Shown here one piece after another: positions 2,907 through 37,986 of a stretch of 37,986 nucleotides of DNA. This DNA comes from a bacterium. Lineage in GTDB: Bacteria > Patescibacteriota > Saccharimonadia > UBA4664. The DNA is taken from NCBI GenBank assembly GCA_016699105.1, contig CP064960.1:1034729-1072714 (forward strand). The letters run 5' to 3'. The notes beneath the pieces are model-generated. The model was not told where the DNA came from and did no database searches. It was given only the letters and a program-made list of their open reading frames with translations. Position 1 is the first letter of the stretch, and every line of letters begins with the position of its first letter. The position numbers were made by a program, and so were the translations under genes.

Positions 2907-3096
2907 TGCTACAGTCCCTTTACAGCCACCCTTGCGAGTGGCCAGCCGGCCAAGTAGTCCTGCGACTCTTCCTTATGGGAATTTGTCCTTGGTGGCTCGT
3001 TATGGCGTAATTGTAGCACGAATGTGGCACATTTTGATGATCAAAATGTTGATTTTTGTGTTGATGTGCGTGTTGCTCTATATGCGAGTTGAACAA

Positions 3097-6682: not shown

Positions 6683-8716
<2,034 letters not shown>

Positions 8717-17387: not shown

Positions 17388-17473
17388 TGGTAGGCGGGGC
17401 GGGACTCGAACCCGCAAGCCGGTTAGGGCAGCGGATTTTAAGTCCGCCGTGTATACCATTCCACCACCCGCCC
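17388..17473 (-). tRNA. tRNA-Leu(UAA), class II, CCA encoded
   Basis: I folded it by hand. Acceptor is gggcggg/cccgcct (G1-U72). The D arm contains GG. The anticodon arm is gcgga-cuuaaaa-uccgc. It has a long variable arm and the T arm gcggg-uucgagu-cccgc, ending in ACCA. Confidence 0.9.
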
Positions 17474-17664: not shown

Positions 17665-17738
17665 TGGAGGCACCTACCGGATTCGAACCGGTGTAAACGG
17701 TTTTGCAGACCGCTGCGTAGCCACTCCGCCAAGGTGCC
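17665..17738 (-). tRNA. tRNA-Cys(GCA), CCA encoded
   Basis: Hand fold: acceptor ggcaccu/aggugcc, anticodon arm gcggu-cugcaaa-accgu, T arm accgg-uucgaau-ccggu, ending in UCCA. Confidence 0.9.
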
Positions 17739-21787: not shown

Positions 21788-22133
21788 TTAGATAATATTC
21801 CATCCACGCAATGCTTCCAGTAGTTTACCGCTACCAAGAATCAGGCCAACCGCTGATAGTTTCGCCCGCATCCGGATGTTAGATCCCACCGAATGCGCCC
21901 AACTGGAAGCACACCAGCCTTTTGCTTCATGTCAGCGTCGGATAATTTGAGGTACCACTGTTCGCTATTAAAGCAAGCTTTGAGGATGAGATGCAAAGCG
22001 CACAGAACGAATATCTGGTTTGTCGAAAACTGCGCACCGTAAACTCAATGGAAGAACCGTTGATTTTAGAGTCGATAACCTCCTGCTTCAAATTCCTTAT
22101 AACATAGATGCACCCCCCACTTCCGCCTCCCAA
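21788..22133 (-). pseudogene. divergent, frame-disrupted copy 4 of the NRMRAK-ending small gene family
   Basis: Minus-strand frames give ...NGSSIEFTV..., LCALHLILKACFNSEQWYLKLSDADMKQKAG and SNIRMRAK (core ttcgcccgcatccgg at 21861-21875). Block order matches the family (W.LK..SSE.., DLHAMLK..W..L..ADEQKPA.., NRMRAK). The similarity is weak. Confidence 0.35.
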
Positions 22134-22620
22134 GTCCCGCCACCCACGCCACCTGTCTCACCCGCCACCCACTGCTTGTTACCTCAGCCTTCCACGCTCC
22201 CGCCTTGTTCTGTCCCACCTTCAGCTCCACTATCCACCCAGCCTCTTCCTGCGCCCTCTGCCACCTTACCTTTTCCTTCCTGCCCTGCTTCCGCCTGCTC
22301 CTATGGACTGTTCACATTCTTCCTCAGTCTTCATTTTTTCCTTCACTCAAAACTCTTCAAAACTCCCATTCACCTTCTGTTCTTCCTGTTCTTCGCTACG
22401 CTGTCTCCTTTCTATGCTCACTCCAGCTCCTTCCTTCCCACCACCCGCTTCCCACCCACCCTACCATTCCTTGCTCACCTTCACCCCCTTCGCCTCCCAG
22501 TCCCTCATGCCCTGTCCCTGCCCAGCTGTCCTTCGCCCGCGCCCGCCCGTCCCGTTTACTGCTTCCTCGTTCCTTCTTCACACATTCACTTCCACTTCAT
22601 CCTATATTTCACCAGATAAC
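22108..22620 (+). repeat. ~500-bp polypyrimidine low-complexity tract (non-tandem)
   Basis: My hand count over 22111-22610 gives ~10% G, ~12% A and ~78% C+T. All three forward frames are open (track ORFs 22020..22619, 22108..22677, 22205..22639). There is almost no GG dinucleotide. C3 runs give G-quadruplex-type motifs on the minus strand at 22444-22461 and 22536-22553. Confidence 0.85.
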
Positions 22621-27143: not shown

Positions 27144-27152
27144 GAATTATTC

Positions 27153-27227
27153 TGGTGCGGGTACAGGGATTCCAACTTCGGACCTCCTCCTTGGCAAGAG
27201 GCGCTCTAACAGCTGAGCCACACCCGC
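27153..27227 (-). pseudogene. decayed tRNA-Gly(GCC)-like sequence
   Basis: It is 75 nt. The acceptor gcgggug/uacccgc is intact, ACCA is present and the loop uugccaa is correct. The 5' anticodon stem has only 4 nt (cctc versus ggagg). The D loop lacks GG (agctgtta). The T stem cgaag/ccctg pairs at only 3 of 5 positions (one a G-U wobble), and the T loop is ttggaat. Confidence 0.6.
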
Positions 27228-27239
27228 GTAATGTAAACC

Positions 27240-27346
27240 GGTGGCGAGATTCTCGTCATGTCGCTTCGCGACCAGCGCACGGAATTTTTGCTTTTAAATT
27301 TAGCAAAATGCACGTTTGCTGCCGAACCGAGCGACGGTTCTCGTCC
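27240..27346 (-). other. tRNA-like fragment with a long AT-rich hairpin insert
   Basis: The 3' end ...gagaatctcgccacc and the 5' end gg(a)cgaga could form an acceptor stem. The centre holds a ttttgct/agcaaaa 7-bp hairpin. No canonical cloverleaf can be drawn. Confidence 0.3.
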
Positions 27347-27359
27347 GAAATGTAACAGA

Positions 27360-27437
27360 TGGTGGCGAGACTCGACTCGAAACTGAGGACATGAGGCTTC
27401 CCCAGGCCATTTCGTTTTACCAACTGAGCCAACTGCC
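27360..27437 (-). other. tRNA-like fragment (degenerate)
   Basis: ggcagttggctcagttggtaaaac... has a D-arm-like start, ...tttcgag... is T-loop-like, and the 3' end is tctcgccacca. The acceptor and T stems do not pair. Confidence 0.3.
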
Positions 27438-27545
27438 GGGCCGATGATCACCGAAAAGGTACTGCAGTATCGTACATTAAATAGCCGTCGGCAACGGATC
27501 GGCTTCAAGTGGTCGCATTGCAGCATTTGCTGCAATGGTTAGCCG

Positions 27546-27880
27546 CTACGGATCGGTTTGTGATTTGACGAGATAATCGTCACTCCAGCCGCTTGACTTT
27601 GTCGATAATTTCGGGATTGTCGACATTGGTTAGTACGATGATTTTGGCCTCTTGGCATGAGCGTCTTCGTAGATTAAAGGGTCTTGAGAAAATCGTATAT
27701 ATCACACCATGCCAGCTAGCATGAGATCAACCAAAATTATGTCAAAATCTATTTCGACTGCACATGGCCAGGCTTCACCGGCGCTGCCCACAATTTCGAC
27801 TTCAAATCCCGCTTTGCTAGACCATAGCCATACATACGCTGCATCTCCGGAGTATCTTCGATCAGCAATACTTTGGGCAT
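27546..27880 (-). pseudogene. single-domain response-regulator receiver (copy B), frame-disrupted
   Basis: ATG at 27880, then MPKVLLIEDTPEMQRMYGYGL. The blocks GFEVEIVGSAGEAW, DIILVDLMLAGM and AKIIVLTNVDNPEIIDKVKRLGVTDYLVKSQTDP* follow in other frames. Confidence 0.6.
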
Positions 27881-28272
27881 TAGGCGGCTCGGGACTTCGC
27901 CGGGGTGAGTGTAACCGGCGATACCTCCTTTCTTGACCATATCGGCCACCTGTTTGGGTTCATATTCACTTTGACGATATATTTGACGGCGCCTTTGGTC
28001 AGGGCGGTTTCCTATGTCTTGCTCACCAGCTAGGTTGGTGAGCATGATCACGGGCGGATTTGCGTCAGGATCGCTCTGAGCTTTTCCAACACTTGAAATC
28101 CGTTCATTTTAGGCATCGCCACATTTGTTAAATGACCGTTGGTTTTTCGGATTGGGCGAGGTCGAGCCTCTTTGGCCATCTTTGGCCATGACTACCCGTA
28201 CTGTTCAAACGTGAAGATCTTTTGCACATCCGGACATCAGCGGGTCGTCTTCGATGATAAGTACTTTACTTA
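27880..28272 (-). pseudogene. single-domain response-regulator receiver (copy A), frame-disrupted, start codon lost
   Basis: The blocks KVLIIEDDPLM, MPKMNGFQVLEKL, VIMLTNLAGEQDI and KYIVKSEYEPKQVADMVKK appear in changing frames. AAGGAG sits at 28277-28282 but no start codon follows it. The stop overlaps the next ATG (TAATG). Confidence 0.55.
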
Positions 28273-28280
28273 GTTTCTCC

Positions 28281-30677
28281 TTATGATTTAGATTGTACGT
28301 TATTTCTGAGCAATCGGCACGTTATGGCAAAGGTCGAACTGGAACCAAGCGTTGATCGATGTTCTAAGTCACCATTCATGGCTTTCTCATATGTCTTTGG
28401 ATATGTACAACCCTAAACCAGTCGAGCGGGTCGAATCACGTGAGGATATCGTCGCTAGCTTGCTGAAACTTGCGGAAGAGCAAATGTTTAGCCTCGTGCA
28501 ATACCTACCCGAATCTTTAATCAGCAATCACTCGAATCGACTTGGCAAAACCGATTGAGATTTCGCCCTTTATCGCAATTTGAGGGCGTTACCGATGAGG
28601 TTGGTAATGACTTGAGCTAACCGATCGTAATCTGCCCACACAAGTGATATGCTTCGCTGGCCAGTATTTTGACTGGCACCGATTGGCTGGGTTTGAGCAG
28701 CAGATTGCGATTGATCGATTTGGCGGTTCGGCACAGAGCCACCATATCGACTGATTCCAGCTTAAAGCGAATTCTTCCTTGTTCGAGCCGAGACGATATC
28801 GAGGAAGTTAGCCATCATCGCAATCAGACGCGCTAGAGCTGCAAATGCGCGTCGCCAAGCATCGACTTTACATCTGGGTTCTGATTTTATCGCCAGTACT
28901 GTTGATCATGGTAGTATTACCCCCCAGGTTAGTGGCGTACGGAGTTCAGTATTGGCATAGAGAAAAACTCATCCTGAGACCGCCTGAGGTTGGGCCAAAT
29001 CGCACGTCGTCATAATACAACTACCCCAGTAATTTTTGTTCTCTCTTGGCGGTCATGACCGGTTGTAAGGTAATGTTCATAATACGCCTTGAAACTGAAG
29101 GTTATGAAACGTTCAGGATGAGCTTTATCTTGAGACATTTATTAATTTTTGCAATGAGGCCGAAGTATTGATCGAGACACCAGTAAGAATATTGGGCTCA
29201 ACAATGGTTTGACCCCCTTGGAGCCCTTGTTCCCTTCGATAATTTGCAGCTGAGTGGCGGTGTTTGCCATCACTATTTGACCGCGTGCATCTGTCATTAC
29301 GAAGCCAATATTTATAAGCTATTTGATGGAGCGGCGGTAACTTCTGGCATGCTCAGCCTGAAACCCAGCTGTAGCTCGAACCACCGCCGTCAACACTAGC
29401 TTTTCATCGCGTAGTTGATCTTTCAAGAATTTTTGCCTTGAAAGCGACGCCGTAAGTTCATCGCGAGATTGTTGAGCTCGGCATTGGCTTTCGGCTTAAT
29501 AACGACGTCACCAAGGCGCCTGCCAGCCCCAAACCAACGAGTAGCTTCTTCAATTTATTATGGTCATTTGATTTGAATTTGTCAGCTTTCTTGAGTCGGT
29601 ATATTCACCGCATTGAGCTCAGCCCGGTGATTCAGTGCCACCTCTGATGTCACGATTCGTCCACGATCTAGTTGGCCTTTGGCTGTAATCATGAAGATTG
29701 CGGCCAATGATTGAGCAGTTTTTTACCACCGAGTAGTGAGGTCAAAGTGCGTACTTGCATAAACAACTTCGGTCATGTTTGATTGCTTGGCAAAACGGCT
29801 TCAGCCATAGTACCCAACACTTAACCGCTAATTCTCCATATTAGAAAAGACCATATTTGGCGAACGCTCATTATAACCGTGATTGCCATGATGGTTGACT
29901 TACTGGCCCAGTGACGGAATCACCCATGAAACCGAGTCCAGGTAATACCACAGCCGATAACGACCAGTGTGACAAGTAATACATGTTGGCGCTGGAGGAG
30001 TAATGCTTGGCGACGGTCTTTGGTACTTGTGCGCTCATTCGGTACAGGACACCGAGCCGACCGGCAGCGGCGAGAGTTACTAGCATAGACCAAGCTACGA
30101 ATAGATATGAGACTAAGGTAGTAGGCGCTTCATAGCCCCATGCAAGTCGTTCTGAAAGCAATGGCGTAGGAAAAACACCATCACCAGCTACAAGTCCTGA
30201 TATGATCATGGCACCGGCAATGAATACGGCTGGTGTGCGCCAACTATCAGACAGCCGGCTGCGATCGGTATAACTGCGGATGAATAGATAGAAGAATACT
30301 GGCAGAAAGCTTAACAATCCGAAGTTTATATGGCTCCAAAAAGCATTGCCAGCGGGTGAGTTGGTCAGACGCTGGGCAGTTTCAAAAGTACCCCACAGGG
30401 CGTTAAAGATAATAAACAAAGCAAACCAAAGCATGGCTTGACCTTCATTGGGACGACGAGCCAACACGACAATGAGTGTTAAATTCGCAATCGCGCTGAC
30501 CGCCGGTACAAGAGCAAACCAATTGATACCCATGGAAAACGATGCCGGAACTGCATTTGACACAGCCACAAGGATGGCCGCTACAAATATAAAATTAATT
30601 ACAAACAAAGTAATATCAAACCAGACTGTCAACGCTGATATATATTGTCCAGTTTGTGATCGTCGCCGATGAAACAT
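28281..30677 (-). pseudogene. 7TM-sensor histidine kinase (copy 2): N-terminal sensor intact, kinase part shattered
   Basis: ORF 29871..30677 is an intact multi-TM sensor region. Below ~30000, minus-strand frames show DEFFSM..ELRTPLT (H-box with the His codon destroyed), LARLIAMMANFLDI, TGLGLYISKDI and STLGSSSTFAIT, with a stop at 28281-28283. Confidence 0.6.
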
Positions 30678-30682
30678 GCTAT

Positions 30683-32965
30683 TTAAGTATCCTGCTTTGA
30701 GAGTTTAAAGCCAAATGTAGAGCCTTTGCCTTCGATTGATGAGAATATAAGCTGGCCTCCCTGATCTTCAATAACGCGTTTAGCCAAATACAACCCTAAG
30801 CCGGTGCCATCGGGTCGCACCGACTTGGCATTGGCTGCTCGGTAAAACTTTGCAAATAGCTTAGATTGCTCAGCCATTGGTACTCCCATGCCTGTATCCG
30901 ATACGGTCAAGATGACATGGGTTTTGGTTTGTTCCAATTTGACGTGTACACCGCCGGTTTCAGTGTAATAGAGAGCATTGTCAATGAAGTTCATGATTAC
31001 TTGCCGCGTTTTTGATTCATCAATACTTAAGGTCACCGGAGTATCGGGCAATTCGGTCGTGAGGGTGAGCCCCTTGCGGGCGGCAGCTGGTTCGAGCTGG
31101 TGAATTTCTTGTTGAACCATTTTAACGAGCTCGGCGGGCTGGCGTTGAATCATGAAACGGCCCGAATTAAGCCGGGAGACATTGAGCATATCACCGGACA
31201 TGTAGACCATTTTTTCGGCGGCTTCTAGCGCATAACTGACGAATTCTTTTTGGTCGGCTGTTAAATTGTTTTTATCGGAGTCGAGGGTCATAGATAAATA
31301 GCCGGTGATGGCTGTCAAGGGTGTGCCTAGTTGATGGCTCGCCATGGAGATAAATTCGTCTTTGGTTTTGTCGAGAGCCCGCAGATTTGTATTGGCGATT
31401 TTGAGCCGTTTGGTGGCGTCTCTGATACGTTGCTGCAGCGTGACGTTAAACTGAGAAATTTCGTCGTAAGCTTTGGCGTTGGCGACGGCGACTGACAACT
31501 CTTTGCGCATTATCTCTAGGACAGCTAGATCTTCATTTGAATAGACTGTGCCAGCTTGCTTGTCACCGAGTGCTAGGTAGCCCACGAGTTCACCGTGAGC
31601 GCGCAGTTGAGTAACAACCTGGATGCCTTGTGCCACCATGACGTGCTTGGCATGAGCGGCCGGCATGAGGTCAGCCACCATCAAGGGATGTTTGAACACT
31701 GGTAAACTGTCAGGACCGAGTGGCGCCACAACCAGTTTGCCGTGGGCAGTTTGACCATAGACCGACTTTCCTTCCATGACGACCAGTTGGGCGTTGACGA
31801 GGCGCATCGTTTTAGTTAGTTCACGTAAGAATTTGTTCATGAGTGGGTTGAGTTCGAGTTCGGTGGCAAAGATACTCGATACCCGATCCAAGAGCGCCTG
31901 AGCGTCGTAGTGATCACGGAAGAACACACGGTCGGTAGCCCGCTCAAAGAATCGGCGCAAGGGTGGGAGGAAAATGCCAGCAAAATGGCACCGATAATAT
32001 AAACCGCGTTTTGGGTGGGTGTGAGTTCAAGTCCGGGTATAATTGCGCCAGCTATGCCGTACATAGCAACGAAGTAGAGAATTGTTAGCGCCAAGAGTAG
32101 CAATATAAATGCCACCGATCGTGCAACTAGCCAACGAAAGTCAAACATTTTATGCGCGACTATGGCATAACTAAAACTCCCAACTAAAAACAACGTAAAA
32201 TATATAGCCAAAACGAGAAATACTCTTGGATTATGTGCTAGTATCGGTAATGCTACGTTCGTAAACAGGGCGATGCCGATTGTAAGTAAAAATCCCAGAA
32301 ACACATATGTCAGTTGTGTTCTTTCGACTTGCAAGGATGACCGCTTAAATTTACGTGATAAATTTATGAGCGCATACATAAGCCAAAAAATATAAATCAT
32401 TGGAAATATTAGATACAAAGGTCCAGGTATAACATTATTTCCCTGAGATTTGAAGTAGTCACGGCGCTAATGACATACTCGCCGAAGAAAAGTACCAAAA
32501 TCGTTGCAACAATCGATGAGATAATGGCTGAAATATTGACTAAAGTACGGGTACTAGCCGAGAATTTGGCTGAGTTTCTGGAAAGTAGAGCGAGAATGCC
32601 GCTATCATATGTATTGTCCAAGCAGCGGCGGCAAATGGCACTCCAGCTAAAATCTTAAACAGTGGGTCAGATATGTTGGCTGTTTGGTCATAATATCCGG
32701 TTGCGCTCCAGACGATAAGTCCCAATACGAGGAGTCAAAAACACGATTCAAAGGCCGATTTGGAGATTGAAGCCATACACACTAGTGCTAAGCCAGTATT
32801 AATTACTAGCACAATCACGAGTGATATGAGAGAAATATTCATATTGCTTAAGCTTAAATTACCATAAATTGACCTCAATATCCATGTATCAACACCGCTG
32901 TTTGTTGAAATGGACCGCCAGCAATTAAGCCGGCGGTCCACGCTCAGGTGTTCAAACGGGTCCAT
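30683..32965 (-). pseudogene. 7TM-sensor histidine kinase (copy 1): kinase part intact, sensor part with apparent frameshifts
   Basis: ORF 30683..31960 is intact. It has the H-box SMASHQLGTPLTAITGY, the N box NFIDNALYYT, and the G boxes DTGMGVP and GTGLGLYLAK. The TM region is split over ORFs 31837..32418, 32409..32621, 32540..32725 and 32735..32965, with shifts near 31960, 32410, 32545-32620 and 32730. The start is uncertain (ATG 32842 or 32965). Confidence 0.7.
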
Positions 32966-33050
32966 TTCTCCTTATCTTGTCGTCGTATTTCTACGTTGGA
33001 TGCCGCAAGCTCAGAAAATTCGTCAGCACTCGGCATTTCGGGAATATCAG

Positions 33051-33616
33051 CTACATCTGCAGGATCAACGTGGGAAACAACACCGAAAAGTTGTGCGGCT
33101 CCAGAGCAAATACTGATCCCAAAGACTGAAGCGGGTTAACACCGACGAGCCAGATGGGCTCTTTGGTAGCTGGTCCACCATCCATTTCTCGCGAATCTAA
33201 CATGCCAAATATTTGAAACGGATAGGTCGCCAATGATTGAGCAATATCTCGCGGGCAGTTAATATCCAATATTCTCCCAGCAGATATCCATCATAGGCAG
33301 CAGATCCGGTAGCCATGAGAAATGCACGACGATTAATTCCGCCAAATCGCGACGGTTCTGCATACGGCCCAGGTGGCAACACAATTCCACGCTTGATGAA
33401 ATAATGACCTGATGGCAACTGGTCAATATTTTGCCGGACCACACGAGCGCAGCTGACTGGTCTACCACCGAGTTCAACCCAATAGTGCCAGGAATACCGA
33501 TCAAATTCATCGACCGGAGAAGCGCTACCGAGCAGTTTGCGAAATGCCACAAGTCGCGCTTGTCGCCAATACGGTAAACGCGCGGTGCCGTATGAGCTGT
33601 GGAGTACTAAATTCAT
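33051..33616 (-). pseudogene. GNAT-fold N-acyltransferase of the LuxI / N-acyl-amino-acid-synthase type (tentative), one apparent frameshift
   Basis: RQARLVAFRKLLG, VDEFDRYS, SCARVV and AEPSRFGG recall the conserved R..F..W / E.D..D / R / E.SRF pattern of acyl-HSL and N-acyl amino acid synthases. The frame changes near 33265, continuing into ORF 33051..33269 (INCPRDIAQSLATYPFQIFGMLD...). The ATG overlaps the upstream stop (ATGA). Confidence 0.45.
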
Positions 33617-34368
33617 ACCTCAACCTTCGTCCGCGTAGCTACGACCATCAGATCATTGCCGGCATATGTCCGATAGTGGTTTTGGAGTTGCCAGTACCGA
33701 GGTTCGAGCCAAGCTAAAGTCGTAGCTTCATCGCTCATATGGAGTTGGCCACTGTGTCGCAAAATTTCATCATTGATGGCCACGAGCGGCGCCAGTTCAG
33801 TCTGCAACATGGCCAGTTCGGCTCCGACATCGAGACCGGCTGCAGCAACTACTGCTAGGTGTTCTTTAAGTACCGCCATCATGTTTGGTTCTGGCATCGG
33901 GTTTGTGAATACGAGTACTCCATTCGGCTTGGTCACAGCGGCAAATCGTCGGATGAGGGCACACGGATCGTTACTGGCATAGACAGCATGACCGCAGTGG
34001 ACTGCGTCAACGGGCTCTGGGATAAACCAAGTCGTGTGGGGCTGATCGATATCGGCTACCCGGCAGTCTACGTGGCCATCGTAGGGCTCACACTGAGCTC
34101 GGGCTATCATGTCTGGTGACTGATCAATCAACAAAACGCGCGGTTTGGGCAGCGCTGGATCGCTTTGCAACGCCCACAGCAATCCGCCGTCGCCACCGGC
34201 TGCATCGAAAATCGTTGACGTTGGCTTGAGATTGATATGACTGTTCATCTCAGAAATGGCGGTCAGCAATAGCTGTCGGTAAGGATGCAGGAGCCGCAAC
34301 CGACCATAGTACTCGGCATATAACTTCCAGATCTCTGCCATAGACAGGGAGGTTAGATCCACAGTCAC
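33613..34368 (-). CDS. class I SAM-dependent methyltransferase
   Basis: 251 aa and intact. Motif I is IFDAAGGDGGLLWAL, and VLLIDQSPDM and GVLVFTNP are also present. Confidence 0.7.
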   Translation of the reverse strand: MTVDLTSLSMAEIWKLYAEYYGRLRLLHPYRQLLLTAISEMNSHINLKPTSTIFDAAGGDGGLLWALQSDPALPKPRVLLIDQSPDMIARAQCEPYDGHVDCRVADIDQPHTTWFIPEPVDAVHCGHAVYASNDPCALIRRFAAVTKPNGVLVFTNPMPEPNMMAVLKEHLAVVAAAGLDVGAELAMLQTELAPLVAINDEILRHSGQLHMSDEATTLAWLEPRYWQLQNHYRTYAGNDLMVVATRTKVEV

Positions 34369-34426
34369 TTACTCCTCAGTCGAGATGTGATAGTGCTAGG
34401 GAGTGGTCACTCCCTCTGTAACTATT

Positions 34427-35482
34427 TTAATTGCTCGGGAGAGGGAACGCCACGTCCGGTAATGTCGGATCCAAGCATTTGGTCAGCGCCGAAATAAACT
34501 GATGATTATGTTCGCGTAAACCGACAGTGATTCTGACACAACCAGCAAGCCGTGGCAAATTGCTCAGATCGGCGATAGCAATATCATGATCATTACATGT
34601 ATGAACGAGTCTCTTGGCTGTGGCATGATCGGGACACTTGAGTAATAAGAAGTTTGCTTCCGATTGAAATAAATACCAGGTTGGAGGCAACAAAGCTTGA
34701 CAAGTCTCATAAATCAATTGTCGTTCTTTTATGACTTTCTGAATTTGCTGTTTCACCCAAGAGACATCTCGGTCATAAGCTAACATTTGTTTGACTATCT
34801 GGCTCGTAAGCGAACTAACCTGAAATGGCGTCTGTAATCTCGTAAGTTCACTGACGGTGCGTTCGTTGGCAATGAGTGCACCACAGCGTATGCCCGCAGC
34901 GCTCAACGCCTTTGACAAGGTGCGCAGAACTATAAGATTTGAAAAATTGTTAATTAGTTTTAGTGTAGAGTTGCCAGCAAACTCGGCATAGGCTTCATCG
35001 ACCACGAATAAGGTTTGAGGACAGCGTCGCAGCAGTCTTTTTAGCATAGGCAGTGGTATACTCTGCCCTGTAGGATTATTGGGGCTGGCAAACATAACCA
35101 TCGATTGTTCAGGTAATTTACCAAGTTGGTTTTCATCAAATTCGAGATGTTCATCTAGTTCCCACGTCGAATAGGCAATGCCAAATGCCTGACAATATTC
35201 CTCATAATATTGAAACGAAGGCCGCGCAATTACGATGTATCCTTGAGGTTTGATGGCATAATGGGTAAATAACAATCGAATAAACGCGCTGGAGCCGGGT
35301 GCGACCATGAGCTGTTCTGGCCGGCAGCCATACCACAACGCCAATTCAACAACCAGGCTTTGAGCGAATGGTTCTGGATATATGTTAAAAGCGACATTTG
35401 ATATTTTATCGGCAATGCGCCGTTTCAGCTCCATAGGTATATCATGCGGCATTTCATTGCGATGTAAAGCTACTGGACTCAT
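34427..35482 (-). CDS. PLP-dependent class I/II aminotransferase, HisC-like
   Basis: 351 aa and intact. The blocks LHRNEMPHD, NIYPEP, ASPNNPTG, VVDEAYAEF and VLRTLSKALSAAGIRCG (PLP lysine context) are present. Confidence 0.75.
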   Translation of the reverse strand: MSPVALHRNEMPHDIPMELKRRIADKISNVAFNIYPEPFAQSLVVELALWYGCRPEQLMVAPGSSAFIRLLFTHYAIKPQGYIVIARPSFQYYEEYCQAFGIAYSTWELDEHLEFDENQLGKLPEQSMVMFASPNNPTGQSIPLPMLKRLLRRCPQTLFVVDEAYAEFAGNSTLKLINNFSNLIVLRTLSKALSAAGIRCGALIANERTVSELTRLQTPFQVSSLTSQIVKQMLAYDRDVSWVKQQIQKVIKERQLIYETCQALLPPTWYLFQSEANFLLLKCPDHATAKRLVHTCNDHDIAIADLSNLPRLAGCVRITVGLREHNHQFISALTKCLDPTLPDVAFPLPSN

Positions 35483-36458
35483 GAGGCTCTCAGCACAAAC
35501 ATATAGGTATTGGGCACACCTAAGACTTGGCGATCAATCAGTTTGAGCCCACTGCGGGCAAAACGCTGCTCATAGTAAGCCAAGGGAAACGTTTTGATAC
35601 CCCTCATGGCATGGACCAGTTCGAACCCCAAAGGTAAACACCGGATACTGAATACCAGCATTTTCGTGCTCATCCTGGCAGGTGTCGGCTAGTACGAAAT
35701 ATTTGGCATTGGGAAACGACTGCCGCAATTTTGTAAACAAGTTGTCGTCAAGCTCCGGCATATTAAATAAGTCATGGAGCATCATGTAGCTCATGACCAG
35801 GTCAGCTTTGGCCAGCTCGGGATGGGGTTCGGATATGGTCGTGAACACGTTTTCGATGATCAACTCTAAGCGGTTCTCTAGTCTGTGTTTTGCTCGTTCG
35901 TGCTGAGCGGCAGTGATGGCGCCAGGATCAATGTCGATGCCAATACCAGACAGCTGCGGACGACGGATGAGTAGTTCGGCTAAGCGGCCAGCATTGCCAC
36001 AACCTAAATCAGCAACGCAGGTAGCTGGTAAACTATCCAGGATTTGCGCAATTGGTTTGGGCCATAATACGCTGGTGGGCTTCGTCTGATCCGATAGCCA
36101 CGTAGTTACCGCGCACGTGGGCATGCCAATCGGTTTGGGGATTCATCAGATACTGATCCATATTTTCAAGTAGTGGACCATAGCCGCCAATCGCCCAGGT
36201 AATAAAGCCGATGTGTTGCTTGAGTTCGACGCCAAGCTCGGTTAAGTAATAGCGGTCATCACGCAGGGTGGTGGCACCGGTCGCAGTGGTTATTAGTAAT
36301 ACTTGTTTGAGGCGATTTTCATCGAGGCGACGGGCGATCACCATCCCTGTTAAACTCATACCCATTTCTAAATCATCGAGTAATTCCAGTTTGGCGAGGC
36401 AATAGAGACTATACGACAAGAGTAGATCGTTAAATACGGTTGCCGAATTGATGGTCAT
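35479..36458 (-). pseudogene. O-methyltransferase with N-terminal winged-helix dimerisation domain, two apparent frameshifts
   Basis: ORFs 36033..36458, 35570..36124 and 35479..35673 join to one 980-nt gene, with shifts near 36085 and 35630. Motif I is VADLGCGNAGRL, and DLVMSYMMLHD is also present. The stop overlaps the aminotransferase ATG (ATGA). AAGGA lies 6 nt before ATG 36458. Confidence 0.65.
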
Positions 36459-36495
36459 AGGTGTCCTTGGTTATTGTTATTGGTTTTTAACAAAA

Positions 36496-36510
36496 CTGAC
36501 AAATTGTCAG
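36496..36510. promoter_or_regulatory. 15-bp palindrome upstream of the biosynthetic operon (candidate operator)
   Basis: CTGACA-AAT-TGTCAG has perfect 6-bp arms. It is centred 45 nt upstream of ATG 36458, inside a 216-bp intergenic region. Confidence 0.35.
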
Positions 36511-36674
36511 GCCATTTGCGCTGTGGGTATTTAATTTTCAAAGAAATTATTTGGAGGTTATGATAAACCGCTGCCATACCGTTGTGAGATCGCCCAATAG
36601 ATGCTATTTAAGCATAAGCGATTTGAGGTCGTCACGCCAGGGGTTTAATTGTTATTTCGTCAGGGTGGCAGCCA

Positions 36675-37019
36675 CTACTTTGACCACCTCTTCCGGCCGG
36701 TAGTCGCTTTTTGGATGAATTTGGTGGCACCAGCGGCGAGGGCAGCTTCGGCGGTAGCTGTATCGGTCAAACTGGTCGTAACTACTACTGGCACATGCTG
36801 CCATGCTCGGTTGGCGCGTAATTTGGTAAGCATTTCGATTCCCCCGACTTTGGGCATGACAACGTCGAGTAAGATTACGTCGGGCAAAGACTGCTTGACG
36901 GCAACCAAGGCGGATTGGCCATCGCCGGCAACTTTAACTGTAAAACCTTCGTGTTCAAACACAACTTGATACATATGGCGGAGTAATTCATCATCTTCGA
37001 CGATCAAGACTGTGGGCAT
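36675..37019 (-). CDS. CheY-like single-domain response regulator
   Basis: 114 aa and intact. It reads MPTVLIVEDDELLRHMY...DVILLDVVMPKVGG...VPVVVTTS...GATKFIQK. No output domain is present. Confidence 0.85.
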   Translation of the reverse strand: MPTVLIVEDDELLRHMYQVVFEHEGFTVKVAGDGQSALVAVKQSLPDVILLDVVMPKVGGIEMLTKLRANRAWQHVPVVVTTSLTDTATAEAALAAGATKFIQKATTGRKRWSK

Positions 37020-37051: not shown

Positions 37052-37986
37052 TTATTGTAATTGGCGCTCGATGTACTTAGCCAGCTTGAAGAGTGGTAAC
37101 GCTGCTAGTAGCACCAAGGCGCTGGCGAGCAGTAGCATGAGTTGCAACGAGTGGTCAGCCGCTGCAAACAAGTCGGTGGCCGGGCGTGCGGCCTGGAGCA
37201 TACCCACGGGTTGGTTATTGACATCAACCAAGGGCGTAATAGCGGTCAGATATGGCCGATTGTTGATGGTGACGCTGCCGGTATAGGTTTGATTGTGTTG
37301 GAGCACTTGGCTCACCGCTGTGGCGTCCGTCAAGCTCACCTATTTGGCGACTGCCGGCTGCATCCGTCAGGGTGGTAGCAGCTCGAACTTGGCCGCCATA
37401 AACCGTGCTCGATAGGCCCGTCGAAGCTTCGATACCATCCACAAACCCGCTCGTGACATCAACTCCGAGCGTCACACTACCGACAACGAGACCGTCGGTG
37501 CCAGTGATAGGGCTGACAGCAGTGAGTGCTACTATCGGTGCTGTCACACCAGAGCTGACGACTACACTGGATGCTGTCTGGCCAGTGAGTGCCCGACGAA
37601 CGAGCGGGTCACTCGAAACCGAATCGCCGTAGCGTTCGGGATCTTCGGCCCTCAGAGGACTCCGCCACTGGCGTCGGTGACGACCAAACTGCTGACATGA
37701 TGATCCCGATAGAATGAGGTCAGTGCAGCAGCTAGCCCCACCTGATTGCGGGTCGCCACGGCACTTGCCACTGAAGCAGTAGCGGCTGCAGTTTGGGTTT
37801 CAGCCTCATTTTGGGCTTGGCGGCTAACGACAGCATATTGCAAAACCCGGCTAGCGGTCTGGAGATCATTGAGCTGGGCGGATTTGACGTCGCGGAGCAT
37901 GAGGTACGTAAAGCTCATGGTTGCTAGCAAGAATATGACAATGACTTGAGCAATGAGCGCCATATAAAGTTGGCTCAGTAATCGCT
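37052..37986 (-). pseudogene. Cache-domain membrane sensor without recognisable output domain, two apparent frameshifts, 5' end possibly outside window
   Basis: TM1 is IAQVIVIFLLATMSFTYLML. The periplasmic part is split between frames at ~37650 and ~37340: ...VVTDASGGV / LRAEDPERYGDSVSSDPLVRRALTGQTASS...GSVTLGVDVTSGFVDGIEASTGLSSTVYGGQVRAATTL / TGSVTINNRPYLTAITPLVDVNNQPVGML. TM2 follows and the protein ends KYIERQLQ*. The frame is open to the window edge upstream of ATG 37963. Confidence 0.55.

Follow-up and report, generated by a model that had tools for sequence, protein, structure and literature searches.

A candidate small-molecule synthase-receptor signalling cassette with deeply diverged alleles in Saccharimonadia

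What is made by two methyltransferases, an aminotransferase and an acyltransferase encoded together directly upstream of membrane sensor kinases, and is the product sensed by those kinases? The question is raised by a locus of a Saccharimonadia bacterium (Patescibacteriota, UBA4664), located in a stretch of 37,986 nt (assembly GCA_016699105.1, contig CP064960.1, positions 1,034,729 to 1,072,714) that is called the window here. HtpX encoded in the window is 85% identical to that of an uncultured Saccharimonadales metagenome-assembled genome, with other Saccharibacteria and Patescibacteria next among the matches, and the locus is assigned to a Saccharibacteria (TM7) genome. All coordinates are window positions, every gene of the cassette is on the minus strand, and the evidence throughout consists of sequence comparison and predicted structure. 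With moderate probability, the locus is read as a small-molecule synthase-receptor signalling module of autoinducer type with specificity alleles. An earlier note on this DNA had proposed a cassette for a modified N-acyl amino-acid signal sensed by the neighbouring two-component proteins. This proposal is supported by the fold predicted for the acyltransferase (X) and by the conserved gene set, with product and sensing as its conjectural parts. The link between X and the kinase is stronger than that note could see, as X and the transmembrane sensor of the adjacent seven-transmembrane (7TM) histidine kinase (HK1) form one hypervariable block. The genes and the block are:

35479..36458, minus strand: MT1 (gene 1), methyltransferase; three open reading frame (ORF) fragments, 325 aa once repaired
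34427..35482, minus strand: AT, aminotransferase; intact, 351 aa
33613..34368, minus strand: MT2, second methyltransferase; intact, 251 aa
32944..33616, minus strand: X (gene 4), putative acyltransferase; three ORF fragments, about 224 aa once repaired
30683..32842, minus strand: HK1, with HisKA_7TM (residues about 1-290), linker, HisKA and HATPase_c (Pfam); frameshifted in the window, 718 aa in relatives
32247..33628, minus strand: hypervariable cassette, with the whole of X, the 5' part of HK1 and the spacer between them

The four co-directional genes were described in the earlier note with ATGA stop/start overlaps at two sites, and both overlaps are there, between MT1 and AT at 35482-35479 and between MT2 and X at 33616-33613. 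The genes are also those of the extent given in it, 33051-36510, except that the end coordinate is too short, since X stops at 32944, about 100 nt further. Alignment to near-identical metagenomic relatives locates the breaks of MT1 as 1-nt insertions at about 36059 and 35632. The breaks of X are 1-nt deletions at about 33240 and 33073 relative to its relatives, which are 224-229 aa long when intact. Indels against near-identical relatives are mostly single bases in short homopolymers, intergenic DNA included, and there are none over the 1.8 kb of AT and MT2. The dN/dS ratio (non-synonymous to synonymous divergence, dN and dS) against relative L001 is 0.11 for MT1 and 0.085 for X. Because of the homopolymer context and the low dN/dS, the four 1-nt indels in MT1 and X are probably assembly errors and not marks of old pseudogenes.

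The hypervariable block and the family of X

Two haplotypes were compared, that of L001 (type 1) and a composite of L008 and L007 (type 2). The upstream 3.7 kb, comprising the 3' end of a Cache-domain protein gene, a stand-alone receiver gene (REC0), MT1, AT and most of MT2, is 100% identical in nt sequence. Then follows a block of about 1.9 kb with only 40-60% nt identity, which takes in the last approximately 300 nt of MT2, all of X, the spacer and the first approximately 288 codons of HK1; downstream of it, nt identity is back to 99-100%. These HK1 codons are exactly the HisKA_7TM domain of Pfam, and the last approximately 100 codons of MT2 also fall in the block. The same pattern is seen in aa sequences, as REC0 and MT1 are 100%, AT 99.7%, and MT2 94.8% identical between the two types, while X is 39% identical. 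For HK1 the identity is about 55% in the 7TM part and 100% in the cytoplasmic part, and the second kinase (HK2) is 99.7% identical. Both haplotypes (contigs of P0001 and P0003 type) are present in each of two samples, SRR5278610 and ERZ27275550.

In the window, the type-1 cassette is set between flanks with 96-98% identity to the type-2 contigs, and the break points are at 33628 and 32247. No nucleotide similarity to type-2 haplotypes is detectable in 32247-33628. The window's X is a deep sub-allele of the L001 X, with dS of 0.89 at dN/dS of 0.085, and the peak has shoulders of 0.36 in the C-terminus of MT2 and 0.20 in the HK1 7TM domain, with dS of 0.01-0.11 further out. Between species, too, X (16-23% identity), MT2 (26%), and the HK1 7TM domain (26-48%) are the fastest-evolving parts, and the first receiver downstream (REC1, 93-96%) and the HK1 C-terminus (76-95%) are conserved. 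It is proposed that X is inherited together with the C-terminus of MT2 and the HK1 sensor as one specificity cassette, with deeply diverged alleles (pherotypes) in one population. The layout of the block is that of pherotype loci of the agr/ComQXPA type.

The family of X is very small. Three clusters at 90% identity were found in 5.8 billion proteins, and a full HMMER pass over 1.8 billion representatives gave 11 proteins; one remote member is annotated as Candidatus Saccharibacteria. The scan of GTDB representatives for X gave 77 pattern matches, none of which was confirmed. Fragmented or crudely merged X had no usable matches in Pfam, NCBIfam or PDB sequences, and the profile of the family matched among PDB sequences only the GNAT protein SACOL1063, marginally, at E 0.015. 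An AlphaFold (AF2) model of X from a 2-sequence alignment was too poor (predicted local distance difference test, pLDDT, of 48) and was replaced by one from a 12-sequence alignment, with pLDDT 90.7 and predicted TM-score (pTM) 0.87. When this model was compared with the PDB in Foldseek, TofI, EsaI, SACOL1063 (a small GNAT), FeeM, LasI and RpaI were the leading matches, followed by BjaI and MesI. The E-values were 1e-6 to 4e-6 for acyl-homoserine lactone (AHL) synthases and 2.5e-6 to 3e-5 for several chains of FeeM (2g0b). The AHL synthases TofI, EsaI, LasI and RpaI fill ranks 1-3 and 6-8 of the hits, with TM-scores of 0.48-0.68. In the model, about 60 additional residues at the C-terminus are predicted to form a helical region.

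Family models give weak signals. Pfam Autoind_synth (PF00765) had no match at E<=10 in the repaired window protein or in any of the 12 family members. FeeM (PF21926) matched six of the 12 at E<=10, with 1.4e-5 as the best value, and at most one of the six may reach the 27-bit cut-off; proteins of the window type, P0001 and P0003, have no FeeM match, and P0013 carries a precomputed PF21926 hit. Acetyltransf_5, which contains OlsB, matched 3/12 members weakly (P0001 at 15.6 bits against a cut-off of 22.4), and the model of PEP-CTERM-associated acyltransferases, TIGR03694, matched one member at E 0.003.

The motif blocks that had been compared with LuxI in the earlier note are present in repaired X (R21..F25, DEFDRYS, CARVV, AEPSRFG) and align with residues of the LuxI core. 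As a reference, seven annotated plasmid AHL synthases were aligned, in which R25, F29, W35, E44, D46, D49, R70, E101 and R104 (TraI numbering) are invariant. In hhalign the X family matched this alignment with a probability of 73.6% and E 2.9e-5, in a register that pairs R..F, D36/D39, R58 and E87-P-S89-R90 of X with R25/F29, D46/D49, R70 and E101-S-R104 of LuxI and leaves W35 and E44 unpaired. X is therefore best described as probably related, at a distance, to the LuxI/FeeM branch of GNATs; it retains the greater part of the catalytic core and is in neither curated family. It founds a very small, un-annotated LuxI/FeeM-like acyltransferase family. Membership of a defence system was also considered and rejected, as PADLOC anti-phage models gave generic methyltransferase and HATPase domain matches only, and none for X.

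Partner enzymes and conservation of the gene order

The second methyltransferase and the HisC-like aminotransferase of the earlier note are both borne out by family searches. In Pfam, MT2 matches Methyltransf_11/12/25/31, as a class-I S-adenosylmethionine (SAM) methyltransferase, and had no match when compared with PDB sequences. AT matches Aminotran_1_2 at E 7e-49 and HisC in the PDB at E 6e-40, and reaches 247.4 bits with the HisC equivalog TIGR01141, below its cut-off of 276.55. By sequence it is a clear member of the HisC family of fold-type-I pyridoxal phosphate (PLP) aminotransferases, placed in a HisC-like subfamily and not assigned as HisC proper.

The first gene had been taken for an O-methyltransferase with a dimerisation domain. 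The dimerisation domain is there, but MT1 belongs to the MppJ family of C-methyltransferases. Its closest solved relative is MppJ, the phenylpyruvate C3-methyltransferase (PDB 4kib; E 9e-24, query 6-312 on chain 35-345), followed by SgvM-like structures 8ftr/8ftv and 2-ketoarginine methyltransferase 8r4z. The similarity is full-length, from the helical dimerisation domain at the N-terminus to the Rossmann SAM domain. The metal site H243-D244 of MppJ corresponds to 'MMLHD' of MT1 and H295 to 'FELVH', both found in the repaired window protein, and a PxFTLGFE motif is common to MT1 and MppJ. In SgvM, H244/H296 hold the zinc that enolises the alpha-keto acid, and this enzyme also has the N-terminal helical dimerisation domain (PMC10502145). 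The end-to-end match and the conserved metal ligands rule out a (plant-type) O-methyltransferase. MT1 is assigned as an MppJ/SgvM-type metal-dependent SAM alpha-keto-acid beta-C-methyltransferase, and the family is secure. Its best NCBIfam match is 2-ketoarginine methyltransferase (TIGR04543) with 72 bits against a cut-off of 425, so that arginine specificity is not supported.

Where an aminotransferase is translationally coupled to an MppJ-type enzyme, the pair is known to turn an amino acid, by way of its keto acid and then the beta-methyl keto acid, into a beta-methyl amino acid. MT1 and AT would thus constitute a classic beta-methyl-amino-acid module, with a presumed substrate and step order. 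Apart from this, MT1 (35479-36458) is the site of a second, smaller divergence peak, with dS of 0.44 against L001/L008. Its neighbours are near-identical (dS 0.011 for REC0 and 0.057 for AT), and MT1 itself is 100% identical between L001 and L008, which suggests mosaic recombination inside the operon.

The gene order was compared at three evolutionary distances (REC, receiver; MT, methyltransferase):

L001-L012, close relatives: Cache, REC0, MT1, AT, MT2, X, HK1, HK2, REC, REC; all frames intact
L039 and L041, sister species (HK1 64-67% identical): Cache, REC0, MT2-like, X-like, HK1, HK2, REC, REC; without MT1 and AT
L048/L049, more distant Saccharimonadia (HK1 53% identical): MT1, AT, extra MT, MT2, X, HK1, REC

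The gene set of the earlier note is thus co-conserved elsewhere, as in a more remote Saccharimonadia genome MT1, AT, MT2 and X, with an extra methyltransferase, stand immediately before the 7TM kinase orthologous to HK1. In L048, MT1 is 50%, AT 48% and MT2 35% identical, and its X matches the X profile in hhalign with 99.6% probability and E 4e-24. The X-like genes of L039 and L041 match the same profile with 97% and 95% probability, respectively, and the MT2-like gene of L039 matches MT2 in BLASTP at E 1e-14. In every X-family gene examined, remote homologues included, X is preceded by one or two methyltransferases. The genes 3' of remote X-family genes are variable enzymes, a ThrC-like PLP enzyme or an alpha/beta-hydrolase. 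Therefore, the core unit is taken to be MT2-X, directly upstream of HK1 in Saccharimonadia, and MT1-AT an add-on that probably supplies an unusual amino acid. Such an add-on fits an amino-acid acceptor for X.

Different genes are found in front of the HK1 orthologues of other Saccharibacteria at two further loci. In L047 (3236-6909) the upstream genes encode a 506-aa protein without Pfam matches and a 718-aa ThiF/nitroreductase fusion, which is similar to ribosomally synthesised and post-translationally modified peptide clusters. In L043 (7903-9988) they encode 440-aa and 188-aa proteins without Pfam matches. The HK1-type 7TM kinase may serve as a shared docking point at which biosynthetic cassettes are exchanged. 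Behind a remote X of a Saccharibacteria metagenome-assembled genome (L013, 10971-12200), a threonine-synthase-like PLP enzyme is encoded, with a TIGR00260 match of 184 bits, above the cut-off. This organism is presumably without amino-acid biosynthesis, and the gene pair hints at homoserine- or phosphohomoserine-derived chemistry there.

The proposed signalling module and its alternatives

The pathway proposed for the window follows family chemistry. AT would convert an amino acid to its alpha-keto acid, MT1 would methylate C3 of the keto acid in a metal- and SAM-dependent reaction, and AT would re-aminate the methylated keto acid to a beta-methyl amino acid. X would then N-acylate this amino acid, with acyl-acyl carrier protein (ACP) or acyl-CoA as the donor, and MT2 would add a further methyl group as an ester or N-methyl. 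The small lipophilic product may be sensed by the 7TM domain of the adjacent HK1, which together with HK2 would signal to the single-domain receivers, and specificity would be set jointly by X, the C-terminus of MT2 and the HK1 sensor.

Several points weigh against this signalling module. The product, its export and its sensing by HK1, the substrates and the order of the steps are deduced from sequence and models. X is below every Pfam and NCBIfam threshold, W35 and E44 of LuxI are without a counterpart in it, and generic GNATs (SACOL1063, ElaA, YjcF) nearly equal the AHL synthases in Foldseek, with TM-scores of only 0.45-0.68. The outcome named in the earlier note as refuting it, that X models as an ordinary protein or aminoglycoside acetyltransferase, was not obtained, the best folds being AHL synthases and FeeM, with the caveat that generic GNATs are only slightly worse. 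No ACP, acyl-CoA ligase or exporter was seen in the locus, and to our knowledge Saccharibacteria are generally without fatty-acid synthesis, so the acyl donor is not accounted for. No transcription factor or other DNA-binding regulator is encoded in the locus, only single-domain receivers, and the output is thus not explained by it. The window's own copy is frameshifted, and its HK2/receiver region is badly degraded. The alleles number two major ones and one sub-allele only, a count that is a lower bound because the HK1 search gave no separate type-2 allele cluster. Scans of GTDB representatives and JGI metagenomes added no alleles, and the aminotransferase query in JGI gave two matches of 22% identity.

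An alternative with much the same chemistry, considered unlikely, is that the product is a membrane aminolipid. X would be an OlsB/FeeM-like enzyme forming an N-acyl amino-acid lipid, MT2 would methylate it as OlsG does ornithine lipids, and the lipid would stay in the membrane and tune the 7TM kinase or the cell surface. That X-family members weakly match Acetyltransf_5 besides FeeM, that one or two methyltransferases are always upstream of X and that the co-varying partner is an integral-membrane 7TM domain is all in agreement with this. However, no second acyltransferase (OlsA-like) and no lipid-type genes are found in the locus, a beta-methyl-amino-acid module is typical of specialised metabolites, and hypervariability of synthase and receptor sensor is a hallmark of signal specificity (PMC4408185, PMC3673130). 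The lipid and the signal share most of the chemistry, and they are hard to tell apart by sequence alone. Very improbable is an antimetabolite or toxin cluster, in which MT1 and AT would make a beta-methyl amino acid toxin like 3-methylarginine (MrsA), X would be a self-resistance or tailoring acetyltransferase, the kinases would only regulate, and hypervariability would come from an arms race with hosts or competitors. In its favour, clusters for amino-acid antimetabolites often include a GNAT for self-resistance, Saccharibacteria are obligate epibionts for which a host-directed molecule is plausible, and 2-ketoarginine methyltransferase is the best NCBIfam match of MT1. That match is far below its cut-off (72 bits vs. 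425), however, and MT1 is nearer to MppJ. MT2-X-HK1 is kept in the sister species without MT1 and AT, so X is not there to handle their product. Between the haplotypes MT1 is 100% and AT 99.7% identical while X and the kinase sensor diverge, and neither an exporter nor an immunity gene is found in the locus.

It is also hardly probable that the neighbourhood is a coincidence, with X as an ordinary GNAT of a small metabolic operon and the divergent block as a single neutral import by recombination, functionally unrelated to the kinase. The close generic runners-up in Foldseek, the failure of X to reach any curated threshold and the small number of alleles seen (2-3, from sparse metagenomic collections) would fit this. 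X nevertheless adjoins HK1 across lineages down to 53% HK1 identity, and divergence peaks over X and tapers off gradually into MT2 and HK1. Purifying selection acts on each of the three allele classes, the same samples contain more than one allele, and X and the HK1 7TM domain are the fastest-evolving parts between species as well. Low probability is likewise given to a decaying, non-functional pseudogene cluster in this genome, whatever the family does elsewhere. The four frameshifts in MT1 and X with further ones in HK1, and the state of HK2, REC1 and the second downstream receiver (REC2), where every 300 nt contain about 20 indel columns and a similar number of substitutions, with no codon-position bias, speak for it. 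Against it, the indels of MT1, X and intergenic DNA are single bases in homopolymer-like contexts, AT and MT2 are free of indels over 1.8 kb, dN/dS is 0.085-0.11 in X and MT1, and the sudden onset of noise within HK2 is more in keeping with a local fault of the assembly than with decay.

The synthase-receptor signalling module favoured here has partial counterparts in several known systems. With LuxI and membrane-kinase systems (LuxM/LuxN, AinS/AinR) it shares the logic of a synthase gene directly upstream of a polytopic sensor kinase. The fold of X is closest to the LuxI synthases TofI, EsaI, LasI, RpaI and BjaI, with R..F, DxxD, R and ExSR aligned, but X is without a PF00765 match and without W35/E44, has the approximately 60-residue C-terminal extra, and is accompanied by no LuxR-type receptor. 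Its tie to methyltransferases and to the beta-methyl-amino-acid module argues for an amino-acid acceptor and not for a SAM-derived homoserine lactone. The likeness to FeeM-type N-acyl amino acid synthases (PF21926; 2g0b) and to PEP-CTERM-associated acyltransferases (TIGR03694) is in fold, weak family signals and the predicted N-acylation of an amino acid. X differs from them in scores below the curated cut-offs, in the lack of a FeeL-type ACP gene nearby, and in its partners, which are methyltransferases, MT1-AT and a 7TM kinase. MT1 resembles the group of MppJ, SgvM, MarI and MrsA (beta-methyl-Phe, -Leu, -Trp and -Arg) in its end-to-end alignment with MppJ, its metal site and its coupling to an aminotransferase. 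In actinomycetes and pseudomonads such enzymes serve the synthesis of nonribosomal peptide synthetase (NRPS) antibiotics or of a free toxin. The locus of the window has no NRPS, belongs to a genome of about 1.3 Mb from the candidate phyla radiation (CPR), and combines MT1 with a LuxI/FeeM-like enzyme and a sensor kinase.

In agr (agrB-agrD-agrC) and ComQXPA of Firmicutes, as here, a variable signal gene and membrane half of the sensor lie between conserved flanks that include the cytoplasmic half of the kinase, and alleles coexist (PMC4408185, PMC3673130). Those systems use a ribosomal peptide with a precursor gene, whereas the variable gene here encodes a putative small-molecule enzyme and no peptide precursor is evident. 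In the phc system of Ralstonia, the methyltransferase PhcB makes a fatty-acid methyl ester that is sensed by the kinase PhcS via non-canonical downstream regulators (PMC8578825). The likeness is that of a lipophilic signal made by a methyltransferase, is functional only, and implies no sequence relationship; phc has no LuxI/FeeM-like enzyme and no beta-methyl-amino-acid module.

In a computational survey (Bernard et al. 2020, PMC7567580), 36 homologues were found in CPR genomes with a LuxI hidden Markov model (HMM), 18 of which adjoin sensor kinases, one of them in Saccharibacteria. The general idea of LuxI-like genes beside kinases is therefore not new. New here is an enzyme family missed by the LuxI HMM and obligatorily coupled to methyltransferases and, in some lineages, to the MppJ-type module. 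New are also the fixed position of X before one orthologous 7TM kinase and the intraspecific hypervariable cassette of synthase and sensor. X is a new branch of the LuxI/FeeM superfamily missed by current annotation, and beta-methyl-amino-acid biosynthesis would be found here in a new context outside NRPS pathways. The CPR, Saccharibacteria included, is a large share of bacterial diversity and host-attached, and next to nothing is known of how these bacteria perceive one another or the hosts they live on. A synthase-receptor pair whose specificity alleles occur naturally would be a testable entry to Saccharibacteria communication. If confirmed, it would extend pherotype diversification, so far a hallmark of Firmicutes peptide signals, to small molecules made by enzymes and to an extremely reduced genome.

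A wider reading is offered only tentatively. Saccharibacteria might run small-molecule kin recognition or quorum sensing, with a new LuxI/FeeM-like family, co-inherited alleles of synthase and 7TM sensor, and a kinase that docks interchangeable cassettes (MT2-X, MT1-AT-MT2-X, ThiF/nitroreductase and others). No self-produced autoinducer is known for Saccharibacteria, which are ultra-small obligate epibionts. If true, this would be the first pherotype system with an enzyme-made small molecule instead of a peptide.

Flanking genes, palindrome and other features of the window

The sensor genes on both sides of the operon agree with the earlier note, in which 7TM histidine kinases were placed downstream and a receiver and a Cache sensor upstream. 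Two HisKA_7TM kinases and then two receivers follow the operon, and a 122-aa receiver and the Cache protein precede it. These features and the palindrome are:

37052..37986, minus strand: Cache-domain protein, 3' part; continues past the window end, frameshifted in the window, 542 aa in relatives
36652..37019, minus strand: REC0, stand-alone CheY-like receiver; Pfam Response_reg at E 4e-25, 122 aa in relatives
36496..36510, minus strand: perfect 6-3-6 palindrome CTGACAATTTGTCAG; 37 nt before the MT1 ATG
28300..30677, minus strand: HK2, HisKA_7TM-PAS-HisKA-HATPase_c; 797 aa in relatives, heavily disrupted from about codon 200 on
27477..28267, minus strand: REC1 and REC2, stand-alone receiver domains; both disrupted in the window

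The Cache protein matches dCache_3/sCache_3_3 in Pfam and was aligned to L001 3607-5235. REC0 was aligned at 98.9% nt identity and has one 1-nt deletion near the 3' end, with the indel at 36713. In HK1, 8-10 hydrophobic segments were predicted.

The palindrome CTGACAAATTGTCAG at 36496-36510 has its centre 45 nt upstream of the ATG and is the sole perfect copy in the window, so its existence and the 45-nt distance in the earlier note, measured from the centre, are right. Comparative support for it was not obtained, as it is present in near-identical strains only and absent from the L039, L041 and L048 loci. In scoring it also comes out as a terminator-like hairpin followed by a T-run, and it shares bases with a -35-like TTGTCA. 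An operator, a weak terminator of REC0, or chance are possible explanations. A conserved operator is unsupported, given its absence in the loci of other species and the alternative hairpin and T-run reading, and the palindrome carries no weight for or against the signalling module. The Rfam scan of the whole window found no riboswitch or other RNA element within or upstream of the operon.

Sequence quality is uneven in the window. Noise begins abruptly in HK2, and the stretch 27150-30080 (HK2 from about codon 200, REC1 and REC2) differs from both L001 and L007 by about 20 substitutions and about 20 indel columns in every 300 nt. Its substitutions are without codon-position bias (48/39/64), and those of HK1 show the usual bias to the third position. 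Either a local fault of the assembly or real decay is indicated. ORFs are poor across approximately 22-30 kb of the window. The LigA ORF (6683-7780, minus strand) encodes the C-terminal half of the NAD-dependent DNA ligase alone (model positions 301-663), probably due to another frameshift or assembly break, and since LigA is essential, sequence error is favoured over real pseudogenes. A tract of about 500 nt at 22110-22610 (plus strand) is nearly all C and T, with GC skew of -0.48 in that 1-kb bin; no tandem repeat was detected in it, and three overlapping plus-strand ORFs were called across it. The Rfam motif DUF3800-II (RF02961) was predicted at 2940-3003 on the minus strand, with 63 bits against a gathering score of 43.2. 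Two tRNA genes, for tRNA-Leu(TAA) at 17388-17473 and tRNA-Cys(GCA) at 17665-17738, are on the minus strand.

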